In this document: in pieces, positions 9,082 through 38,895 of the stretch
How the letters are laid out: every line of letters starts with the position of its first letter
Position numbering within the stretch: the stretch's first letter is position 1
Source: a virus
Taxonomy: Duplodnaviria > Caudoviricetes
Length of the DNA stretch: 64,000 bases
Virus record (IMG/VR): IMGVR_UViG_2597490201_000002
Coordinates: 1-64,000 of that record
Direction: 5' to 3' (one strand)
Notes under the pieces: generated by a model
Databases searched by the model: none
What the model saw: only the letters and a program-made list of their open reading frames with translations
What the model was told of the DNA's origin: nothing
Program-made: the position numbers and the translations under genes

Positions 9082-10278
9082 TCAAAATTTGATGGTGGTG
9101 TGGGGGATGCTGCCGGCGGCGATCGCGGTGATGATCTTCCACGCCTTGTCCTTGCCGATACCGGCCGCCCGCATGACAGCTTCCTCGGCATCGAGCATGA
9201 TTGTGGTGCGGTGCCGCTGATCGGCCGCGCGAGCATCGGCCTCTTCTTCCTCGCGAAGACGTTGGGCTTCCGCCTCGTCCAAGACGCGCTGAGCGGCTTC
9301 GCGCTCACGCCGCTGGGCGTCTGCCTCCGCTTCGGCGGCACGCGCTTCTTCCGCGGCGACCTGTTCTACGCGCTGCCTTTCTTCGACATCATCGAGTGAT
9401 TTCAGGGCGGCCAGCTTAGCGGCCTCGGCTTCCTCGCGGCGATCGCCAAAGGATTCGTCGATGACGACCTTCTCCTGCAGCTCCCGCCGAAGGATGATTA
9501 TGGGGTAGGGGCGGCCGTCTATCAGGCCGAGGCCGCAATTGACGATGTGTTTGATCTGGGCATCGACATAGGCTGCCTTGCGTTCCGCGTCCTCGCGCGC
9601 CTTCCTCTCGGCCGCCTCCGCCGCGTTGCGGCGCTCCGCCTCCTCCCTAAGACGCGCAAGTTCGATGCGCTCTTCGTCGAGATGGATCTGGCGCTGGAGG
9701 GCAGAGTTCAGGATGGCAAGGCTGGTGTCGCGTGCGTCGGAGGCGACGTCGAAGAAATCGCCGAGGTAGTCCAGATGGAGCTCGGTGTTCTGAACCTGCT
9801 TGATGCGGGCCCGCAGGGTCTCGGTCGTGTCCTCGATCGTTACCTTGCCGGCTTGCTTCAGGCCGTCGACGATGGCCTGACACTGGGTCTTCCGCTTGGC
9901 TTGCTCGGCCTCCCAGTCGTCGAGGGGCTTGCGAGCCTTGTCCCGAAGGGCATCAAGCCGGTTGCGCAACTTCCGGCGTTCAGCATTGACCGACTGGACC
10001 TTCTTGTTCGCTTCCTGGATCAGTTCGGCGCCGGCGTCGTCGATTGCGGTCTTGGTCCGGCTGATTTTGTAGGCGAGCGAGGCCACGGCCTTGCGGCCCT
10101 TATCACTTGCCAGGTCAACTGGGGCCGTCGTGATTTCCTGCTCGATGTGAGCAAACAGCTCGTCTGCCTTGGCGGGATCGTTGAACACCAGGGCAGGGGT
10201 AGTCTCTACCAGCACGGCGATGCTGGTGGTGGCGCTCGACATGGCGCTCTCTCCGATGCTTGGGGTGGCGTCCGTCAT
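9082..10278 (-). CDS. Coiled-coil phage protein
   Basis: DLASDKGRKAVASLAYKISRTKTAID...RKPLDDWE is a common lambdoid early protein pattern with E/A/R-rich helices. Confidence 0.7.
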   Translation of the reverse strand: MTDATPSIGESAMSSATTSIAVLVETTPALVFNDPAKADELFAHIEQEITTAPVDLASDKGRKAVASLAYKISRTKTAIDDAGAELIQEANKKVQSVNAERRKLRNRLDALRDKARKPLDDWEAEQAKRKTQCQAIVDGLKQAGKVTIEDTTETLRARIKQVQNTELHLDYLGDFFDVASDARDTSLAILNSALQRQIHLDEERIELARLREEAERRNAAEAAERKAREDAERKAAYVDAQIKHIVNCGLGLIDGRPYPIIILRRELQEKVVIDESFGDRREEAEAAKLAALKSLDDVEERQRVEQVAAEEARAAEAEADAQRREREAAQRVLDEAEAQRLREEEEADARAADQRHRTTIMLDAEEAVMRAAGIGKDKAWKIITAIAAGSIPHTTIKF

Positions 10279-10439
10279 GGCTGAACCACCAAAACGAGGA
10301 CAAAGAGGGCGACGAGGAAAGCCAGCACCGCCCAGTAGTAGGGAGGAGCGTCAGCCGACAGCACCCAAAGGGCGTAGACGAAGAAGGCCGCGAGACCGGC
10401 ACTTGCGCCCCAAGCGATAATCGTCATTGGGCGGTTCAT
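10275..10439 (-). CDS. Small two-TM membrane protein (54 aa)
   Basis: Read manually: MNRPMTIIAWGASAGLAAFFVYALWVLSADAPPYYWAVLAFLVALFVLVLVVQP. ATGA overlaps at both ends. Confidence 0.6.
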   Translation of the reverse strand: MNRPMTIIAWGASAGLAAFFVYALWVLSADAPPYYWAVLAFLVALFVLVLVVQP

Positions 10440-10675
10440 GACTTGCCGCCGATCAAGCGCTCGACGTCCTCGACGACAGCTTCAATGGTGGTGTCGACCG
10501 TCCAGCCGTCATCAGGGATCTGGATTTGAAACTCGACCTCGATCTCCATAAGCACATCGAGAATGTCGAGGCTGTCCATTTGGAGGTCGCCCAGTGTCGT
10601 CGAGCCCGGCTTGGAATCGGCGGAGTGCGCGAGAATTTCGAGGATGCGGTTCTGGTTCGGGGTTAGGGTGCTCAT
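10436..10675 (-). CDS. Acyl carrier protein homolog
   Basis: 79 aa and acidic; LGDLQMDSLDILDVLMEIEVEFQIQIPD matches the ACP phosphopantetheine site (DLGxDSLD..E....EEEF.IEIPD). Confidence 0.85.
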   Translation of the reverse strand: MSTLTPNQNRILEILAHSADSKPGSTTLGDLQMDSLDILDVLMEIEVEFQIQIPDDGWTVDTTIEAVVEDVERLIGGKS

Positions 10676-11166
10676 TTCGGCGCTCCGACGAACATGGCGA
10701 GCGTCGCGGCGACTGGCATTTCCTTCAATGCAGGGCTTGCAGCAGCCGCCACCCGCTCAAGGGCTTTCCCCGTCGTCATCATCGCTATGGAAGCCATCAC
10801 CGACACCTGGGCGGTAAACTTCGCCTGTGTCTGACGCGGCAAGCGGGAGAAGTCCGCCTTCATCTGCCGCTCAAACGACCGGTTCGCCTTGCGCCGGATT
10901 GCCTCAGCGGCATTACCGCCTTCGGCAACGATCTCTTCGTCGTTGAGACGCTTCACGCCTTCGCCGATGAGGGTGCCGAACACCATTCCTTCGTCGCGAA
11001 GAAGCCGGCGCAGGGCTGTTCGCAGGGGGCCTGATGACCCGTCGACGTCACGAGAAATCACGGCACCCAGTTCTTTGTAGGTGAACGTCTGGCCGACAGT
11101 CGCCGATGACATGTGCTGCATCAGCAAGCGCGCATCAGCGGACATCTGGAAGGTTGGGCTGGTCAT
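10672..11166 (-). CDS. Hypothetical protein, possible winged-helix N-terminus; next to RAMP-like gene
   Basis: GQTFTYKELGAVISRDV...LRTALRRLLRDEGMVF...GVK is wHTH-like. RBS AAGGAG is present. Confidence 0.65.
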   Translation of the reverse strand: MTSPTFQMSADARLLMQHMSSATVGQTFTYKELGAVISRDVDGSSGPLRTALRRLLRDEGMVFGTLIGEGVKRLNDEEIVAEGGNAAEAIRRKANRSFERQMKADFSRLPRQTQAKFTAQVSVMASIAMMTTGKALERVAAAASPALKEMPVAATLAMFVGAPK

Positions 11167-11182
11167 GGGGTCTCCTTTTGGT

Positions 11183-11249
11183 GGCTGTTGCTATGCGCAG
11201 CACTGAGGGGTGGTGCGTGGCGGATCGACGAGGTGCGGGGACTAGACCG
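11183..11249 (-). repeat. Pentamer-periodic tract D (downstream of RAMP-like gene)
   Basis: + strand from 11190: gctat gcgca gcact gaggg gtggt gcgtg gcgga tcgac gaggt gcggg gacta gaccg. Preceded by ggctgtt, the same end motif as tract C. Confidence 0.7.
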
Positions 11250-11814
11250 TGGACCACTGGAAGCCGGTGACGTGGAAGCGGCCGAGGAAGCCGCCCTTCT
11301 CCGGGCGGAAGCGGCCAATACCGACGAGGCGTCCAGCCTCAGTGATCGCCTGTTCGAAAATCGCTTCGGGGATGATGTCGTCGAGGATCGCAAAGCGAGC
11401 GACCGCCTCGTATTCCTTGATGATCGGGAAGCGGCGACGGACGCGCTTTCCCGACCCGCGAACGCCGTCGGCATTCGCCCAAATATCAATCTGTTCAAGA
11501 TCGTCTTTATGGATGCCGAGCGAGACGTCGGCCTCGCATATCTGGCCGGCTGTGAAGAACTTGGTGTAAGTGGACTTGCCGCGACCCGGGATGCCGATGT
11601 TGAGGCGCTTCACCGCTTCGTCCACGGACATCTTGAGTGCCATCGCGGGGATGCACACGATGCCACTGCTATCGTAGGTGGCTTTCTCGCGCCAAAGACG
11701 CTTGTCCCAACCGTCCGCGCTTTCTTTCTCGAGCTTCGGAAACTGATCCGGGTCGACCGCCTTCGATTGGCTGTAGGGAGTGGCGGACTTAATGGTGACG
11801 AGACAGATTTTCAC
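11242..11814 (-). CDS. Stand-alone Cas7/RAMP-like protein
   Basis: RAMP hallmarks: N-terminal strand VTIKSATPY, IPAMALKMSV (cf. IPGSSLKG), and a C-terminal glycine-rich loop AGRLVGIGRFRPEKGGFLGRFHV. RBS AGGAGG at 11819-11824. Confidence 0.75.
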   Translation of the reverse strand: MKICLVTIKSATPYSQSKAVDPDQFPKLEKESADGWDKRLWREKATYDSSGIVCIPAMALKMSVDEAVKRLNIGIPGRGKSTYTKFFTAGQICEADVSLGIHKDDLEQIDIWANADGVRGSGKRVRRRFPIIKEYEAVARFAILDDIIPEAIFEQAITEAGRLVGIGRFRPEKGGFLGRFHVTGFQWSTV

Positions 11815-11829
11815 GATGACCTCCTATTT

Positions 11830-12195
11830 GGCTGTTGCGATGCGGAGCGGAGCGTAGAGCTGCGTTACGAAGCGTGGCGCTGCGCCATGATGTGATGCGG
11901 CTCGGCGATCGGGGCTTGCCCGGCGCCTGACGCGGTCAAGCGTCTGGAACGAGACAAGCTGTGGCTGGTGAGTGGCAGAGATGAGCGTAGCGAGGCGTTG
12001 CGTAGCGTCGCGCCGAGCAGCGGCGTGTTGCGCCGTTTTCGAACAACCGTCCGGAGACCAGCACCACGCGGGTGCTGGCGACCTGAAGGTTGGGGCTGGT
12101 GAGTGGTGATGCGGCGAGATGCGCCGCGTAGAGCGGCAGAGCTGCGCGGAGAGACGCGTCGTAGAGGTTCCCCTCCCCAAGCCGGTCCACGCGGA
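11830..12195 (-). ncRNA. Array of three ~130-nt units, each a hairpin plus ~14 pentamers (constant triplet + variable NN); candidate guide RNAs
   Basis: 5-nt register tracts at 11837-11911, 11970-12039 and 12101-12170. Shared ggctg motif at 11830/11963/12094 and shared acgcgg motif at 11930/12066/12189. Strand is inferred from the operon. Confidence 0.7.
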
Positions 12196-12236
12196 ATCAG
12201 CCAAGCAAGGGAACGAGTGATGGTTGACAGCAGCGC

Positions 12237-12635
12237 TCACGCCACCTCTCCCACAAAACGGGTCCAGAGGGCGTCGAGCCAGCCGTGCATGACAGCAATC
12301 ATCGCCTCGTAGGGGCGAAGCTCTGTCCACGCCGAGCGATCAGCGACGACCCCGGGGGCGGACGAGCGGGCGGCATTCCAAGCAGTGTCGAGCCGCCGCT
12401 GGTGGACGATGATGGCGGCGGTGAGCACCGCCATCGAATGTGTTGGTGGGAAGTAGGGGGCGGGAGACGCGACAGCGGAAAAGAGCTTTGCCAAGATCGC
12501 ATCTTCATCGACTGCGCCTACGCCATCACATGGCGGCGCTGCCAGCGGAAAGTCGGTAGGGGCGCGGCCGTGCCACTCCTCAAATGCCTTGAGGAAAGAC
12601 GCTTGGGCCGCCGAGGATGGTGGTAGGGGCTGCAT
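12237..12635 (-). CDS. Hypothetical protein, first gene of leftward operon 1
   Basis: 132-aa ORF with a GGAG RBS, just downstream of the operator cluster. Confidence 0.6.
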   Translation of the reverse strand: MQPLPPSSAAQASFLKAFEEWHGRAPTDFPLAAPPCDGVGAVDEDAILAKLFSAVASPAPYFPPTHSMAVLTAAIIVHQRRLDTAWNAARSSAPGVVADRSAWTELRPYEAMIAVMHGWLDALWTRFVGEVA

Positions 12636-12666
12636 CGGTTGCTCCGGTTCGGGACAACCAATGCAT

Positions 12667-12724
12667 AACCAATCAATTTGTGATCAGCAACAAAAAAGAT
12701 GGTTATGCGACAAATCTTTTGGTT
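12667..12724. promoter_or_regulatory. OL-like operator cluster of repressor 1 (ACAAA-N5-TGGTT x3)
   Basis: 12667-12681 (reverse), 12690-12704 and 12710-12724. The same motif occurs between CI1 and Cro1. Confidence 0.7.
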
Positions 12725-12881
12725 TTTTGCCATTGACAGAGGCATGGCAAATCCCCCTATAACCCCCTTGGGAGTTCTGGGTGAAATCGAGTCACACTGA
12801 GGATCTGGAGATAGTTTAGGGGCCGTAAGGCCCCCTATGTACATACCTAGTAGATATACCGCGCGAGGCTTACGCCGCGCT

Positions 12882-13478
12882 TTATTCCTCGAAAAACTCT
12901 AGCTGAAAACAAAACTGGGGTGGAGTGATGCCGCCCCATTCCGGCGTCGTATAGGCCCTGGCGAACCAGCCTTGGGCAAGAACGAGGTCGTCGGAGGTGC
13001 CGTGAGGAATGTTGTCTCCTCGTACCAGGGCATTCTGCAGGTCTGCGGCAGCTTGTGCAAACAAGGGCTCGGCTTCGACATCTGGGATGTTCAGCTTGTT
13101 CTCAACAGCGTTCAGCAGGGTCGCAATGACCTGCTCAAATCTACTCACCAGGTACTTATCGTCACTTTCCGGGACCAGGTTGGCGCAGATATCCAGAAGT
13201 GCAAAGGAGCCGTCTGGCCTGCAGTCGAGATAGCCAGTGTGGTTCTTGATCGCTATTTGAGGTTGCTCCATCCGGTCTTCCAGGACCGCCTCGCCGACTG
13301 TCGCGTGGCGCAGTTCATCAAAGTGAAACGGCTTGTCGAATAAGGCCGGGACCGTCGAGCGCGTGGATCGGAGATCTTCGAACTCATCGACCAATGCTTG
13401 GCAAGACAAGCCGGCATCACTTGCAACGGCCGGGGTTGCGAAAATAACCAAGCATACCAGCCAATGTGCTCGCATCAT
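12882..13478 (-). CDS. Exported protein in immunity region (possible superinfection exclusion)
   Basis: Signal peptide MMRAHWLVCLVIFATPAVA; co-transcribed downstream of CI. Confidence 0.6.
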   Translation of the reverse strand: MMRAHWLVCLVIFATPAVASDAGLSCQALVDEFEDLRSTRSTVPALFDKPFHFDELRHATVGEAVLEDRMEQPQIAIKNHTGYLDCRPDGSFALLDICANLVPESDDKYLVSRFEQVIATLLNAVENKLNIPDVEAEPLFAQAAADLQNALVRGDNIPHGTSDDLVLAQGWFARAYTTPEWGGITPPQFCFQLEFFEE

Positions 13479-13726
13479 TCGATCTCCGGTATCTCGCCTT
13501 CAGAAAATAGCGTGACCGGCTCCCCGAATTCACCGTTGATCAGGTCAGCCTCGCGGGACCAAGCGATCACGCCTTCATATTTTCCGCTCGCCCAAAGTAG
13601 CCTTGCCTGTTGCTTCGCTCCAGATTCGGACTGAGCTTCCCGGGCTTCAAATGCGGGCCGAAGTTCGCCCTCTTCGTCACGAGCAAACGCTACATAAACG
13701 ATGAGTTTCGTTGGCAAAGGGCTCAA
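13475..13726 (-). CDS. Small conserved protein, homolog of 36717..36974
   Basis: GVIAWSREADLINGEFGEPVTLFSEGEIPE. TTG start overlaps the CI stop. Confidence 0.65.
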   Translation of the reverse strand: MSPLPTKLIVYVAFARDEEGELRPAFEAREAQSESGAKQQARLLWASGKYEGVIAWSREADLINGEFGEPVTLFSEGEIPEIE

Positions 13727-14514
13727 TTGATTCTTCCAAATCTCCAGAGCACCGCTCCAATAATTTGGACCTCGTCCAAATTCCACTCGCGGGGAGCGTG
13801 TTTGGGGTTGTCCGAAATAATCCGAACGGTCTGGATTTCGTCGTTAGGCTTGCTCGTAAGCTCGAGGCGCTTGATGACAATCCCGCCAAAGGCGTCTGTG
13901 AGAGCATAGATCCCGTCCGGCGAGGGAAGGCGATGCTTCGTGTTCACCACAACGAACTCCCCATCCAGAACGGTGGGCGACATGCTGTCGCCCGAAGACG
14001 GAAGTATCGCTAAGTCCTCAGGGCTAACGCCTGCGGCCCGGAGTAGTGCAAGGGGAAAGCGCCAAAAGTCGCTTACCGCTTCGGCTGAGAAGGTCATTCC
14101 ATTGCGGCCGGGCACTCCTTCGTGGACCAGCGTTAGGCCGCCCCCGCCCATTCCAGCAATGACATCGATCTGAGGGACAGTGCCTTCGGGTATGCCTTGG
14201 CGGCCCGTTTCAGAGCCGACTGTCATTCCCTCGGGCAGGGCTGCATCGACTGCATCCGGGTCGAAGCTCTCAAAGACTCTAGGTCGCGGGGCCCGGGGCA
14301 TCTCCTGTTCGTCGTAAAGATAGAGAACATCGACCTGCAAGGATCTAGCCAGAACGTCCGTGTAGGTGGGGTTCTTCGTTACACCCATCTCAACCGCGGC
14401 AATTGCCTGCTGTGTCTTTCCTACACGTTTGGCCAGCTCTTGCTGAGATAGCCCCATTGCTTCTCTGGCCTGGATTACACGTTTCGGATTTATCGATCTC
14501 TGAGACTTTTTCAT
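13723..14514 (-). CDS. CI-like repressor 1 (XRE HTH + S24 peptidase)
   Basis: AREAMGLSQQELAKRVGKTQQAIAAVE HTH; AG cleavage site (IAGMG), GDSMSP and IKRL catalytic residues. Confidence 0.9.
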   Translation of the reverse strand: MKKSQRSINPKRVIQAREAMGLSQQELAKRVGKTQQAIAAVEMGVTKNPTYTDVLARSLQVDVLYLYDEQEMPRAPRPRVFESFDPDAVDAALPEGMTVGSETGRQGIPEGTVPQIDVIAGMGGGGLTLVHEGVPGRNGMTFSAEAVSDFWRFPLALLRAAGVSPEDLAILPSSGDSMSPTVLDGEFVVVNTKHRLPSPDGIYALTDAFGGIVIKRLELTSKPNDEIQTVRIISDNPKHAPREWNLDEVQIIGAVLWRFGRIN

Positions 14515-38062: not shown

Positions 38063-38803
38063 CTACAGCGGTAAGTCGTTTCTCACCGATCTTACCAAAG
38101 CAATAATCTCGACGCTCACGCCATCGTCGGCCTGGGTGTCGCGCTTCACTACGATAGGCATGAGGCTTTTGTCCGACGAGCGCGGGTGAAACTCGATCCT
38201 GTCCTCATAGAGTTCGATCTGCTTCACTGACCATTCGCGGGTGTGGCCTCCATCGCGGGTGCGCTCGACGACAACGACCAAGCCATCCTTGATCCTCACC
38301 TGGTGAGCGACATCCTCATAGGCAACGCCGATGATGCGGTCGCCGGGGAGGATGGGGCGGGGATGAAGCTCATTCATAGAGATTCCATCAACGTCCCACG
38401 CCATACGGCGGGCGTTCGGGAATTTCTCGTCAGGCGGCTCCCAGACGCGTTCTGGTGCCGACTGGTCGAATTCGTTGGCTTCCCTGAATACGCCGGCTGC
38501 GACCTTGCCGTTGACCTTGATTGGCAGCAGCGGACGATGATGCGCCGGCACGATCTCAGAAGGCTCGGTTGGTTGCTGGGCCACTTCATCCGCGTCTGAC
38601 GTCAGCCACTCCACAGGTTGCTGAAGATAGTCGGCAAGTCCCTGCAGGTTTGCTCCTCGAGGGAATGCTGATCGCCCCTGCTTTATGGCTCGCAAGAGGT
38701 CAGGGTTCTTTCCTCCAGTGGCAGCCAGAGATGCGGCGCGATCACTAGTTCCGGGGTGCAGTTCGTCAATGCGGGCGCGGATGCGCTCATAGGCTGTCGT
38801 CAT
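38063..38803 (-). CDS. CI-like repressor 2 (HTH + S24 peptidase)
   Basis: SDRAASLAATGGKNPDLLRAIKQGRS HTH; VAAG cleavage site, GISMN and SVKQ catalytic residues. Confidence 0.88.
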   Translation of the reverse strand: MTTAYERIRARIDELHPGTSDRAASLAATGGKNPDLLRAIKQGRSAFPRGANLQGLADYLQQPVEWLTSDADEVAQQPTEPSEIVPAHHRPLLPIKVNGKVAAGVFREANEFDQSAPERVWEPPDEKFPNARRMAWDVDGISMNELHPRPILPGDRIIGVAYEDVAHQVRIKDGLVVVVERTRDGGHTREWSVKQIELYEDRIEFHPRSSDKSLMPIVVKRDTQADDGVSVEIIALVRSVRNDLPL

Positions 38804-38805
38804 GT

Positions 38806-38895
38806 GCGGCATTCTTGCCGCTCCCCTCTATGAAAACTAGCGGCACGTGTGCCGCATTTTGTGCTTGACGATGCGGCACAACTGCCGCATACAAT
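38806..38895. promoter_or_regulatory. OR-like region 2: three GCGGCA-N4-TGCCGC operators and PR
   Basis: Operators at 38806-38821, 38840-38855 and 38873-38888; TTGACG at 38865-38870. Confidence 0.85.

Follow-up and report, generated by a model that had tools for sequence, protein, structure and literature searches.

A prophage locus that probably encodes a VIPR system of a non-canonical (CGC) repeat class

In CRISPR complexes, subunits of the Cas7 family form polymers along guide RNA, each covering a set number of nucleotides. Here we analyse a locus in which the gene for a small Cas7/RAMP-like protein is flanked by tracts of pentameric repeats, in a 64,000-nucleotide stretch of viral DNA (Duplodnaviria; Caudoviricetes; positions 1 to 64,000 of IMG/VR record IMGVR_UViG_2597490201_000002), which we term the window. 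The closest described systems are those named VIPR (Viral Interference Programmable Repeat), in which, according to a bioRxiv preprint of 2026, Vipr proteins are accompanied by flanking vrRNAs consisting of 9 to 16 YNNGG repeats and a 3' tail (10.64898/2026.04.26.720920). The same text reports a 1-nucleotide (nt) skip code for double-stranded DNA, silencing of transcription in rival phages and satellites, seven types that all share one code, and accessory genes termed vap. It also mentions the related consensus repeats NNNGG, YNNNG and NNNNG, and describes the tail of the SUSP1 clade as a pseudoknot and the SUSP1 vrRNAs as acting in trans (10.64898/2026.04.26.720920).

The cryo-EM account of Vipr from Escherichia phage SUSP1 places the skipped target base in a pocket between the helical bundle and the thumb (10.64898/2026.04.26.720927), and a further preprint on VIPR is available (10.64898/2026.10.15.759431). 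A search based on the periodicity of language-model entropy yielded 99 period-5 clusters, 21 of them non-canonical, including GAC/NN, CAC/NN, WGT/NN and TGH/NN (10.64898/2026.10.21.760802). CGC is named neither in the running text of that preprint nor in the other VIPR texts consulted; it may be among the patterns, all of which are listed in Fig. S10A of the language-model preprint.

A Vipr homolog and its flanking tracts

The locus described here is very probably a prophage-borne VIPR system of the non-canonical (CGC) repeat class. It combines a minimal RAMP protein homologous to Vipr, pentamer arrays on the gene strand, a small accessory gene and a viral location without cas genes or a CRISPR array. 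Both the VIPR kind and non-canonical triplets are already in print in the preprint texts cited above, and the locus is not the first of its kind.

The central gene is an open reading frame (ORF) of 190 amino acids (aa) that contains the motif IPAMALK and the glycine loop GRLVGIGRFRPEKGGFLGRF, as an earlier, sequence-only reading of this DNA had pointed out. A profile built from an alignment of 73 family members (A1) was compared with PDB chain sequences and retrieved 36pp_D, 'SUSP1 Vipr protein', at an E-value of 1.7e-11 (query residues 11-183, residues 28-190 of the 202-residue chain); the next matches had E-values of at least 0.66. In the SUSP1 genome the same profile identified exactly one place (E 1.5e-13), and alignment of the family with SUSP1 Vipr by hhalign gave a probability of 97.7% (E 1.5e-12, 169 columns, 17% identity). 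SUSP1 Vipr is a member of phrog_4652 (E 1.4e-96), which is also the sole PHROG touched by the 190-aa protein (E 4.1e-6). A tblastn search of 50,697 phage records with the 190-aa protein returned no match at E <= 0.01; the link to SUSP1 is visible only with a profile. Neither Pfam nor NCBIfam contained a family for the protein.

The AlphaFold2 model of the 190-aa protein had a pLDDT of 97.2 and a pTM of 0.90. Foldseek comparison of this model with the PDB produced 141 matches at E <= 1e-3, the best at 5.5e-8, and the best 50 of the 141 comprise type VII, III-A Csm (for example 5yjd_B, Csm3), III-B Cmr and III-E gRAMP chains with TM scores of about 0.5-0.6. The comparison with Cas7 structures that the sequence-only reading had proposed as a check therefore returned Cas7-type chains. 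The profile comparisons show the 190-aa protein to be homologous to SUSP1 Vipr, whose structure has been solved, and its own predicted structure has a Cas7/RAMP fold.

Four tracts, T1 to T4, lie around the gene (Table 1), each with strict 5-nt periodicity on the gene-sense (minus) strand. In the published Y-NN-G-G register they read C-NN-C-[G>T>A], that is, a constant triplet C-G/T/A-C followed by NN. Both C positions are near invariant, the last position prefers G over T over A, and NN is variable; the initial two or three of the 15 units of T3 are degenerate. The C[G/T/A]C-plus-NN tracts noticed in the sequence-only reading were thus recovered at lengths of 11-15 units. T4 begins 2 nt past the vipr stop codon. 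T3 runs up to the ribosome-binding site of vipr and its GTG start codon, and T4 to the ribosome-binding site and start of the downstream gene.

Table 1 Features of the vipr locus (positions in the window).
Feature	Position	Strand	Description
vipr homolog, 190 aa	11242..11814	-	RAMP/Cas7 fold (predicted); G-loop GIGRFRPEKGGFLGRF
Tract T1 (vrRNA-like)	12094..12161 including tail; units 12161-12097	-	13 units C-NN-C-G; end CACCA then GCC
Tract T2 (vrRNA-like)	11963..12035 including tail; units 12035-11966	-	14 units; end CACCA then GCC
Tract T3 (vrRNA-like)	11830..11907 including tail; units 11907-11833	-	15 units; end CAACA then GCC
Tract T4 (vrRNA-like)	11183..11240 including tail; units 11240-11186	-	11 units; end CAACA then GCC
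Imperfect hairpin	12044..12092	-	directly after T1; -28.5 kcal/mol, z -2.9; 1/200 shuffles folds as well
Weaker imperfect hairpin	11914..11959	-	after T2; -25.3 kcal/mol, z -1.2; 21/200 shuffles as good, not significant alone
Candidate vap-like accessory gene, 164 aa	10672..11166	-	N-terminal winged-helix-like domain and helical hairpin (predicted)

Counted by C-x-C phase, T1-T4 reached 17-20 out of 20, against a window mean of 6.2 (sd 2.0) and maxima of 14-17 in 30 first-order Markov simulations of the window. No further cluster with a phase count of at least 16 was found in the window for any base on either strand. A motif-blind period-5 score of at least 24 out of 30 was likewise attained in the window only at T1-T4 (mean 14.4, sd 1.7). 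Across the whole 5.05-Mb genome, scores of at least 26 were confined to the vipr locus, and scores of at least 24 formed 10 clusters, namely T1-T4 and six short isolated ones. T1 (score 25) and T4 (24) individually fall in the genome-wide tail of scores; the observation is significant because four tracts cluster within 1 kb, not because of each tract alone. The motif-blind scan revealed no clear orphan vrRNA elsewhere in the 5.05-Mb genome. The sole site outside the vipr locus scoring 25 (contig C17, 123927-123994) has G and C three apart, unlike the C..C tracts.

The sequence-only reading had also stated that the window holds no other cas gene and no CRISPR array. No cas gene was found among the 47 window ORFs scanned against PHROGs, and Tandem Repeats Finder and Rfam revealed no CRISPR-like array in the window. 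Rfam matched no family there, and no hammerhead ribozyme was found between the tracts. The locus does not have the make-up of a class 1 CRISPR-Cas effector, which would comprise a CRISPR array and further cas genes (Cas5, Cas6, a large subunit and adaptation genes): the window has no array, and the 47 scanned ORFs include no cas family.

Tracts and tails in related loci

Loci encoding relatives of the 190-aa protein at 41-99% identity (163 in total) were collected from genome, metagenome and viral contig collections by using a closer alignment together with single proteins; a scan of genome contigs with one protein alone gave two loci. Among the 163 are the locus of the source genome itself and records that occur in two collections; the dereplicated set comprises 135. 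Relatives are encoded on 129 stretches of IMG/VR viral contigs, and the family as a whole counts 2,027 proteins at E <= 1e-3 in a collection clustered at 90% (929 clusters at 50% identity). The gene was found in none of 400 other genomes of the same order (E <= 1e-10), as expected for a sporadic mobile gene.

Examination of homologs for flanking period 5 had been suggested by the sequence-only reading, and at least one period-5 tract was found within 700 nt of the gene in 156 of the 163 loci. Of the seven tract-less loci, six have at most 68 flanking bases on one side; for the remaining one, L139, the figure is 359. In the dereplicated set, 512 C..C tracts (median 13 units) share the strand of the gene, against 6 on the opposite strand. 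Within 700 nt of the gene are 432 of the gene-strand tracts, with none inside it, and relatives carry arrays of up to 8-9 tracts. The pooled logo has C at position 1 (0.83) and position 4 (0.82), G (0.64), T (0.19) or A (0.14) at position 5, and near-uniform NN.

As a control, the same motif-blind detector was applied to SUSP1 and found the four published vrRNAs in their published places, one before the gene and three after it, with the gene-strand reading T-NN-G-G. Since the detector recovers the SUSP1 arrays, T1-T4 can be said to agree with published vrRNAs in the length and number of units and in strand and register, and to differ at the first constant base (C for G). The sequence-only reading had pointed to a phage system called VIPR, which does exist in print (10.64898/2026.04.26.720920), and had regarded the 190-aa protein as a RAMP/Cas7-like relative that would polymerise on RNAs built of a constant triplet and a variable NN; this view is supported by the 36pp profile match, the Cas7-type fold, the conserved gene-strand tracts and the SUSP1 vrRNAs recovered in register. 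It had further proposed a related or new variant with CGC rather than GGY as the constant triplet. The CGC is true of the sequence, whereas the newness is weakened by the non-canonical repeats and triplets given in the preprint texts.

The same data bear on the notion that the tracts are chance low complexity, the coding sequence of overlapping ORFs or DNA repeats unrelated to the gene. In its favour, ORFs of 84 aa (11936-12190, minus strand) and 168 aa (11824-12330, minus strand) overlap the tracts, and T1 and T4, each taken alone, lie within the genome-wide score tail. However, period 5 cannot hold a reading frame, and neither ORF has a Pfam or NCBIfam match. This origin is also contradicted by the comparative data, namely the strand bias of 512 to 6, the tracts beside nearly all homolog loci and a constant triplet that shifts along with the protein clade. 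We regard it as scarcely credible.

Nearly every tract in the 16 closest loci is closed by CA(C/A)CA and then GCC, as in T1-T4. L008, L039-L041, L048 and L062 hold 6-9 consecutive tracts about 15-20 nt apart, each ending CACCA-GCC; these are dense vrRNA arrays with neither hairpins nor ribozymes in between. At the locus itself, the hairpin directly after T1 is a possible structured tail or terminator. Family-wide, a significant hairpin follows 38% of 136 'terminal' tracts (those with no gene start or tract next), but only 1% of 192 and 4% of 169 tracts in the other two classes. The sequence just after T1 (12100-12082, ACCAGCCCCAACCTTCAGG) resembles the initial codons of the 164-aa accessory gene (11163-11146, ACCAGCCCAACCTTCCAG) and could be the remnant of a duplicated module of tract end plus gene start.

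A crude motif placed a ribosome-binding-site-like sequence and a start codon within the 40 nt after 192 of 497 tract ends. Together with T3 and T4, which stop 3-10 nt short of the ribosome-binding sites that serve vipr and the next gene, and with the like arrangement in relatives, this raises the possibility that the tracts are mainly cis regulatory leaders: Vipr would bind arrays in its own and the accessory 5' untranslated regions and control translation or stability, with no trans guide. On the other hand, T1, T2 and the multi-tract arrays of relatives adjoin no start codon, and hypervariable NN beside a conserved triplet is predicted by a programmable guide and unneeded for autoregulation. 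In addition, the preprint text has SUSP1 vrRNAs acting in trans (10.64898/2026.04.26.720920). Thus, we consider a mainly cis role very unlikely.

Constant triplets and the residues that may read them

In SUSP1 Vipr, as given in the structural preprint text, G1 is contacted by H17 and D177, G2 by R138 and W178, and Y3 occupies a pocket formed by R179, E71 and M72 (10.64898/2026.04.26.720927). These residues were mapped onto the 190-aa protein through an alignment at 18% identity. H17 corresponds to S17 (Ser in 64 of 73 family members) and D177 to R168 (Arg in 50 of 73). W178 is replaced by F169, the position being F, W or Y in 71 of 73 members, and R179 is retained as R170 (72 of 73). The backbone-contact residue K33 of SUSP1 sits in an insertion without a counterpart in the family alignment.

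The change from G to C at constant base 1 coincides with the replacement of both residues that contact base 1 in SUSP1 (H17 to Ser and D177 to Arg), and the second and third constant bases (G and a pyrimidine) are kept alongside the aromatic residue (W178 to Phe) and R179. As far as aligned sequences can indicate, this residue pattern is what a one-base specificity change would look like.

Covariation between residues and triplets was assessed over 129 loci after rows with fewer than 15 units or proteins shorter than 150 aa had been dropped. Where the D177-equivalent position is Gln, the middle constant base is A (C-A-C) in all 8 loci; where it is Arg, 99 loci have G as the middle base, 8 have T and 10 are mixed. 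A FastTree tree places three separate origins of Gln, each accompanied by a change of the base, although a sign test gave p 0.25, with too few pairs. Arg is permissive: one Arg clade (L248-L252) carries A-A-T, and others G-G-C or G-T-T. Phe at the G-loop position goes with G-A-C in two loci, and G is the first constant base in the three loci whose residue aligned with H17 is Gly. The simple code 'Arg reads G, Gln reads A' survives only partly, the permissiveness of Arg excluding a simple one-residue code.

The Gln G-loop (GxGQ[YFN]R) with C-NN-C-A repeats was seen in L029, L032, L073, L108, L235-L238 and L240. Further triplets occur in L241-L252, L148, L158 and L162, namely G-A-C (with the Phe G-loop), A-A-T, G-G-C, G-T-T, G-T-C and C-T-T. 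The family thus carries many constant triplets, in line with the preprint account of non-canonical motifs (10.64898/2026.10.21.760802).

We tentatively raise, as a possibility we would not yet favour, that the CGC-class Vipr and its relatives form mutually orthogonal protein-RNA pairs in which a few pocket residues set the triplet, and that tract ends at ribosome-binding sites couple guide processing to expression of the system. Under such a scheme, a middle base rich in G would call for Arg at the D177-aligned position of the G-loop and an A there for Gln, and Ser or Gly at the H17 position would go with C or G as the first base. If this were true, co-resident phages could run private guide channels closed to rivals. 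Neither the orthogonal pairs nor the coupling to expression is stated in the VIPR preprint texts.

Proposed mechanism, prophage setting and known systems

By homology to the SUSP1 and P. fulva systems, the tracts would be transcribed with the early-left operon and released as vrRNAs of about 70-90 nt. One Vipr protomer would occupy each pentamer, hiding the constant triplet and displaying the NN. About 11-13 displayed dinucleotides would then pair with double-stranded DNA, every third target base being skipped, and the bound filament would block transcription of a competing phage, prophage or satellite. The accessory protein may enhance this silencing.

A number of observations weigh against the assignment to VIPR or against this mechanism. 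The constant triplet is not the canonical GGY (YNNGG), the logo reading C-NN-C-G. The residue map stands on an alignment of low identity, transcription of T1-T4 and their binding by the protein are proposed by homology only, and a consensus scan of 10400-13000 found neither a sigma-70-like promoter nor an intrinsic terminator (0 and 0). The sequence-only reading had suggested searching phage and host genomes with the gapped NN; no convincing target emerged. Skip rules 0-3 were applied to the own genome, where the 1-nt skip gave at best 19/26 (18/22 for T4), no better than codon periodicity expects, the guide of T2 being offset by one unit in this search. T1 with a 1-nt skip and at most 3 mismatches had no match in 121 related genomes, with a pattern that included both conserved terminal units and may have been too strict. 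T2 and T3 (T4 left out) had none in 81 genomes of the genus.

Exact 8-unit seeds for T1-T4 produced 8, 30, 20 and 11 matches, respectively, in IMG/VR. The best extensions of these seeds reached 22/26 (in 67% GC contigs) and 24/28 (in 39-40% GC contigs), which is chance level, and none had the skipped base at a codon wobble position. Taking the own genome, the 121 and 81 related genomes and the IMG/VR seeds together, no target at 80% or more with the expected codon phase was found. When the 512 guides were compared with all loci and the own genome, skip 1 gave 64 seeds, skip 0 gave 9 and skip 2 gave 11; the skip-1 excess, considered as a signal of the skip rule, was traced to the low-complexity GC-repeat guides of L122 and L056. 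A seed match between L093:2399-2478 and L024:325-372 is no more than a lead for VIPR-against-VIPR targeting, such seeds being at chance level in number.

The lack of GGY does not exclude membership of VIPR, since related consensus repeats and non-canonical triplets are allowed for in the preprint texts; it places the locus in the non-canonical class. The empty target searches bear rather on whether a Vipr-like ribonucleoprotein follows another recognition rule or acts on another substrate than in SUSP1, for example through another gap length, RNA as the target or target destruction in place of silencing. Such a departure would also be consistent with the replacement of both G1-contacting residues, the changed constant triplet and a short linear CA(C/A)CA-GCC tail instead of the SUSP1-clade pseudoknot. 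However, unit length, unit number, strand, register and the third-base pyrimidine are as in SUSP1, and the accessory gene looks DNA-binding, not nucleolytic. Moreover, the SUSP1 structure has a pocket for the skipped base (10.64898/2026.04.26.720927), though K33 is without a counterpart here, and all seven VIPR types are said in the preprint text to use one code (10.64898/2026.04.26.720920). On balance we hold another rule or substrate to be unlikely, and a VIPR system of the CGC class that acts by silencing is preferred.

The sequence-only reading had described the vipr homolog as a stand-alone gene. This is so as regards cas genes, but a conserved accessory gene next to it had been overlooked. 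By tblastn, 60 of 134 dereplicated related loci have the 164-aa ORF next to vipr and in the same orientation, whereas each of four other neighbouring ORFs lies beside vipr in 0-1 of the 134. For its alignment, 28 of the 60 matches were kept; 26 covered fewer than 130 residues, 3 had internal stops, L042 and L061 duplicated L043 with equal identity and coverage, and L037 was also left out. The model of the 164-aa protein (pLDDT 91.9) matched a transcriptional regulator best in Foldseek, at an E-value of 0.013. VIA Z scores of 6.9-7.3 for the winged helix are below the level that the tool calls distinctive. The MGMT-type DNA_binding_1 family of Pfam was detected in 6 of 29 family members, with a best E-value of 3e-4, and Ada gave an E-value of 0.017. 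With moderate confidence, the modelled protein appears winged-helix-like and DNA-binding-looking, and not nucleolytic. Its gene is a candidate vap, which would fit the published vap genes, predicted DNA binders in some types.

The vipr locus lies in the leftward early operon of a prophage, between a CI-like/Cro-like repressor pair and the RecT and phage exonuclease genes, the last two being 2-3 kb downstream. The one neighbour of these that was compared, a 398-aa ORF (9082-10278), recurs in only 1 of the 134 related loci. The gene that follows the accessory gene immediately within the operon is a 79-aa acyl-carrier-protein-like ORF (10436-10675, minus strand), with matches to Pfam PP-binding (E 3.7e-5, above its cut-off) and phrog_5934 (E 6.3e-12); it stands beside vipr in none of 134 relatives. 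PHROGs matches of the 47 window ORFs include an integrase, a Dda-like helicase, RecT, exonuclease VIII, CI-like and Cro-like repressors, RuvC, SSB, terminase, portal, capsid and tape measure. The integrase is at the left end, CI-like repressors are encoded at 13723-14514 and 38063-38812, and three DNA methyltransferase genes are present. A single complete set of head and tail genes occupies the part from 48.5 kb on, and there is no tRNA gene. The window may represent one large mosaic prophage or two adjacent elements.

The discovery of VIPR is months old, and the bench-tested systems are of the GGY type only. The present locus and its roughly 2,000 relatives indicate that C-G-C is the triplet of a large clade of phages, mostly alphaproteobacterial and environmental, whose sister clades use C-A-C, G-A-C, A-A-T and other triplets. 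This natural series of triplets and pockets provides material to work out how Vipr reads the constant bases, and is also what would be needed for orthogonal programmable repressors without cross-talk. With respect to annotation of this genome, the VIPR reading gives two hypothetical genes a putative function, and likewise 0.4 kb of seemingly non-coding DNA in the immunity region of the prophage.

Compared with the type II VIPR of SUSP1 (Vipr, vap1 and four vrRNAs; PDB 36pp), the locus shares a homologous RAMP protein of about 190-200 aa with a G-loop and four sense-strand pentamer arrays of 11-16 units with three fixed and two variable positions. A pyrimidine as the third constant base, a small accessory gene with predicted DNA binding and a phage or prophage location are further common features. 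The two differ in that protein identity is about 18%, the constant triplet is C-G-C here and G-G-U in SUSP1, and Ser and Arg stand in place of the G1-contacting H17 and D177. In place of the SUSP1 pseudoknot, the tail is read from the sequence as a short CA(C/A)CA-GCC motif, with a hairpin after T1. Three arrays lie upstream of vipr and one between it and the accessory gene, and the system, known here from sequence alone, belongs to a temperate prophage of a 61% GC genome.

The non-canonical arrays of the language-model survey resemble the present tracts in having period 5, a non-GGY triplet and a neighbouring Vipr-like fold, and the CAC/NN and GAC/NN motifs given in its text are among those found beside relatives of the 190-aa protein (10.64898/2026.10.21.760802). 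With the Cas7 family of class 1 CRISPR systems (Csm3, Cmr4, type VII Cas7 and gRAMP), the 190-aa protein shares, in its model, the RRM core, glycine-rich loop and thumb (Foldseek E 5.5e-8 to 1e-4), at an identity of 10-18% and in a window devoid of cas genes and a CRISPR array. The step is 5 nt here and 6 nt there, and the putative guide is encoded here as interleaved dinucleotides, whereas there it is a contiguous spacer.

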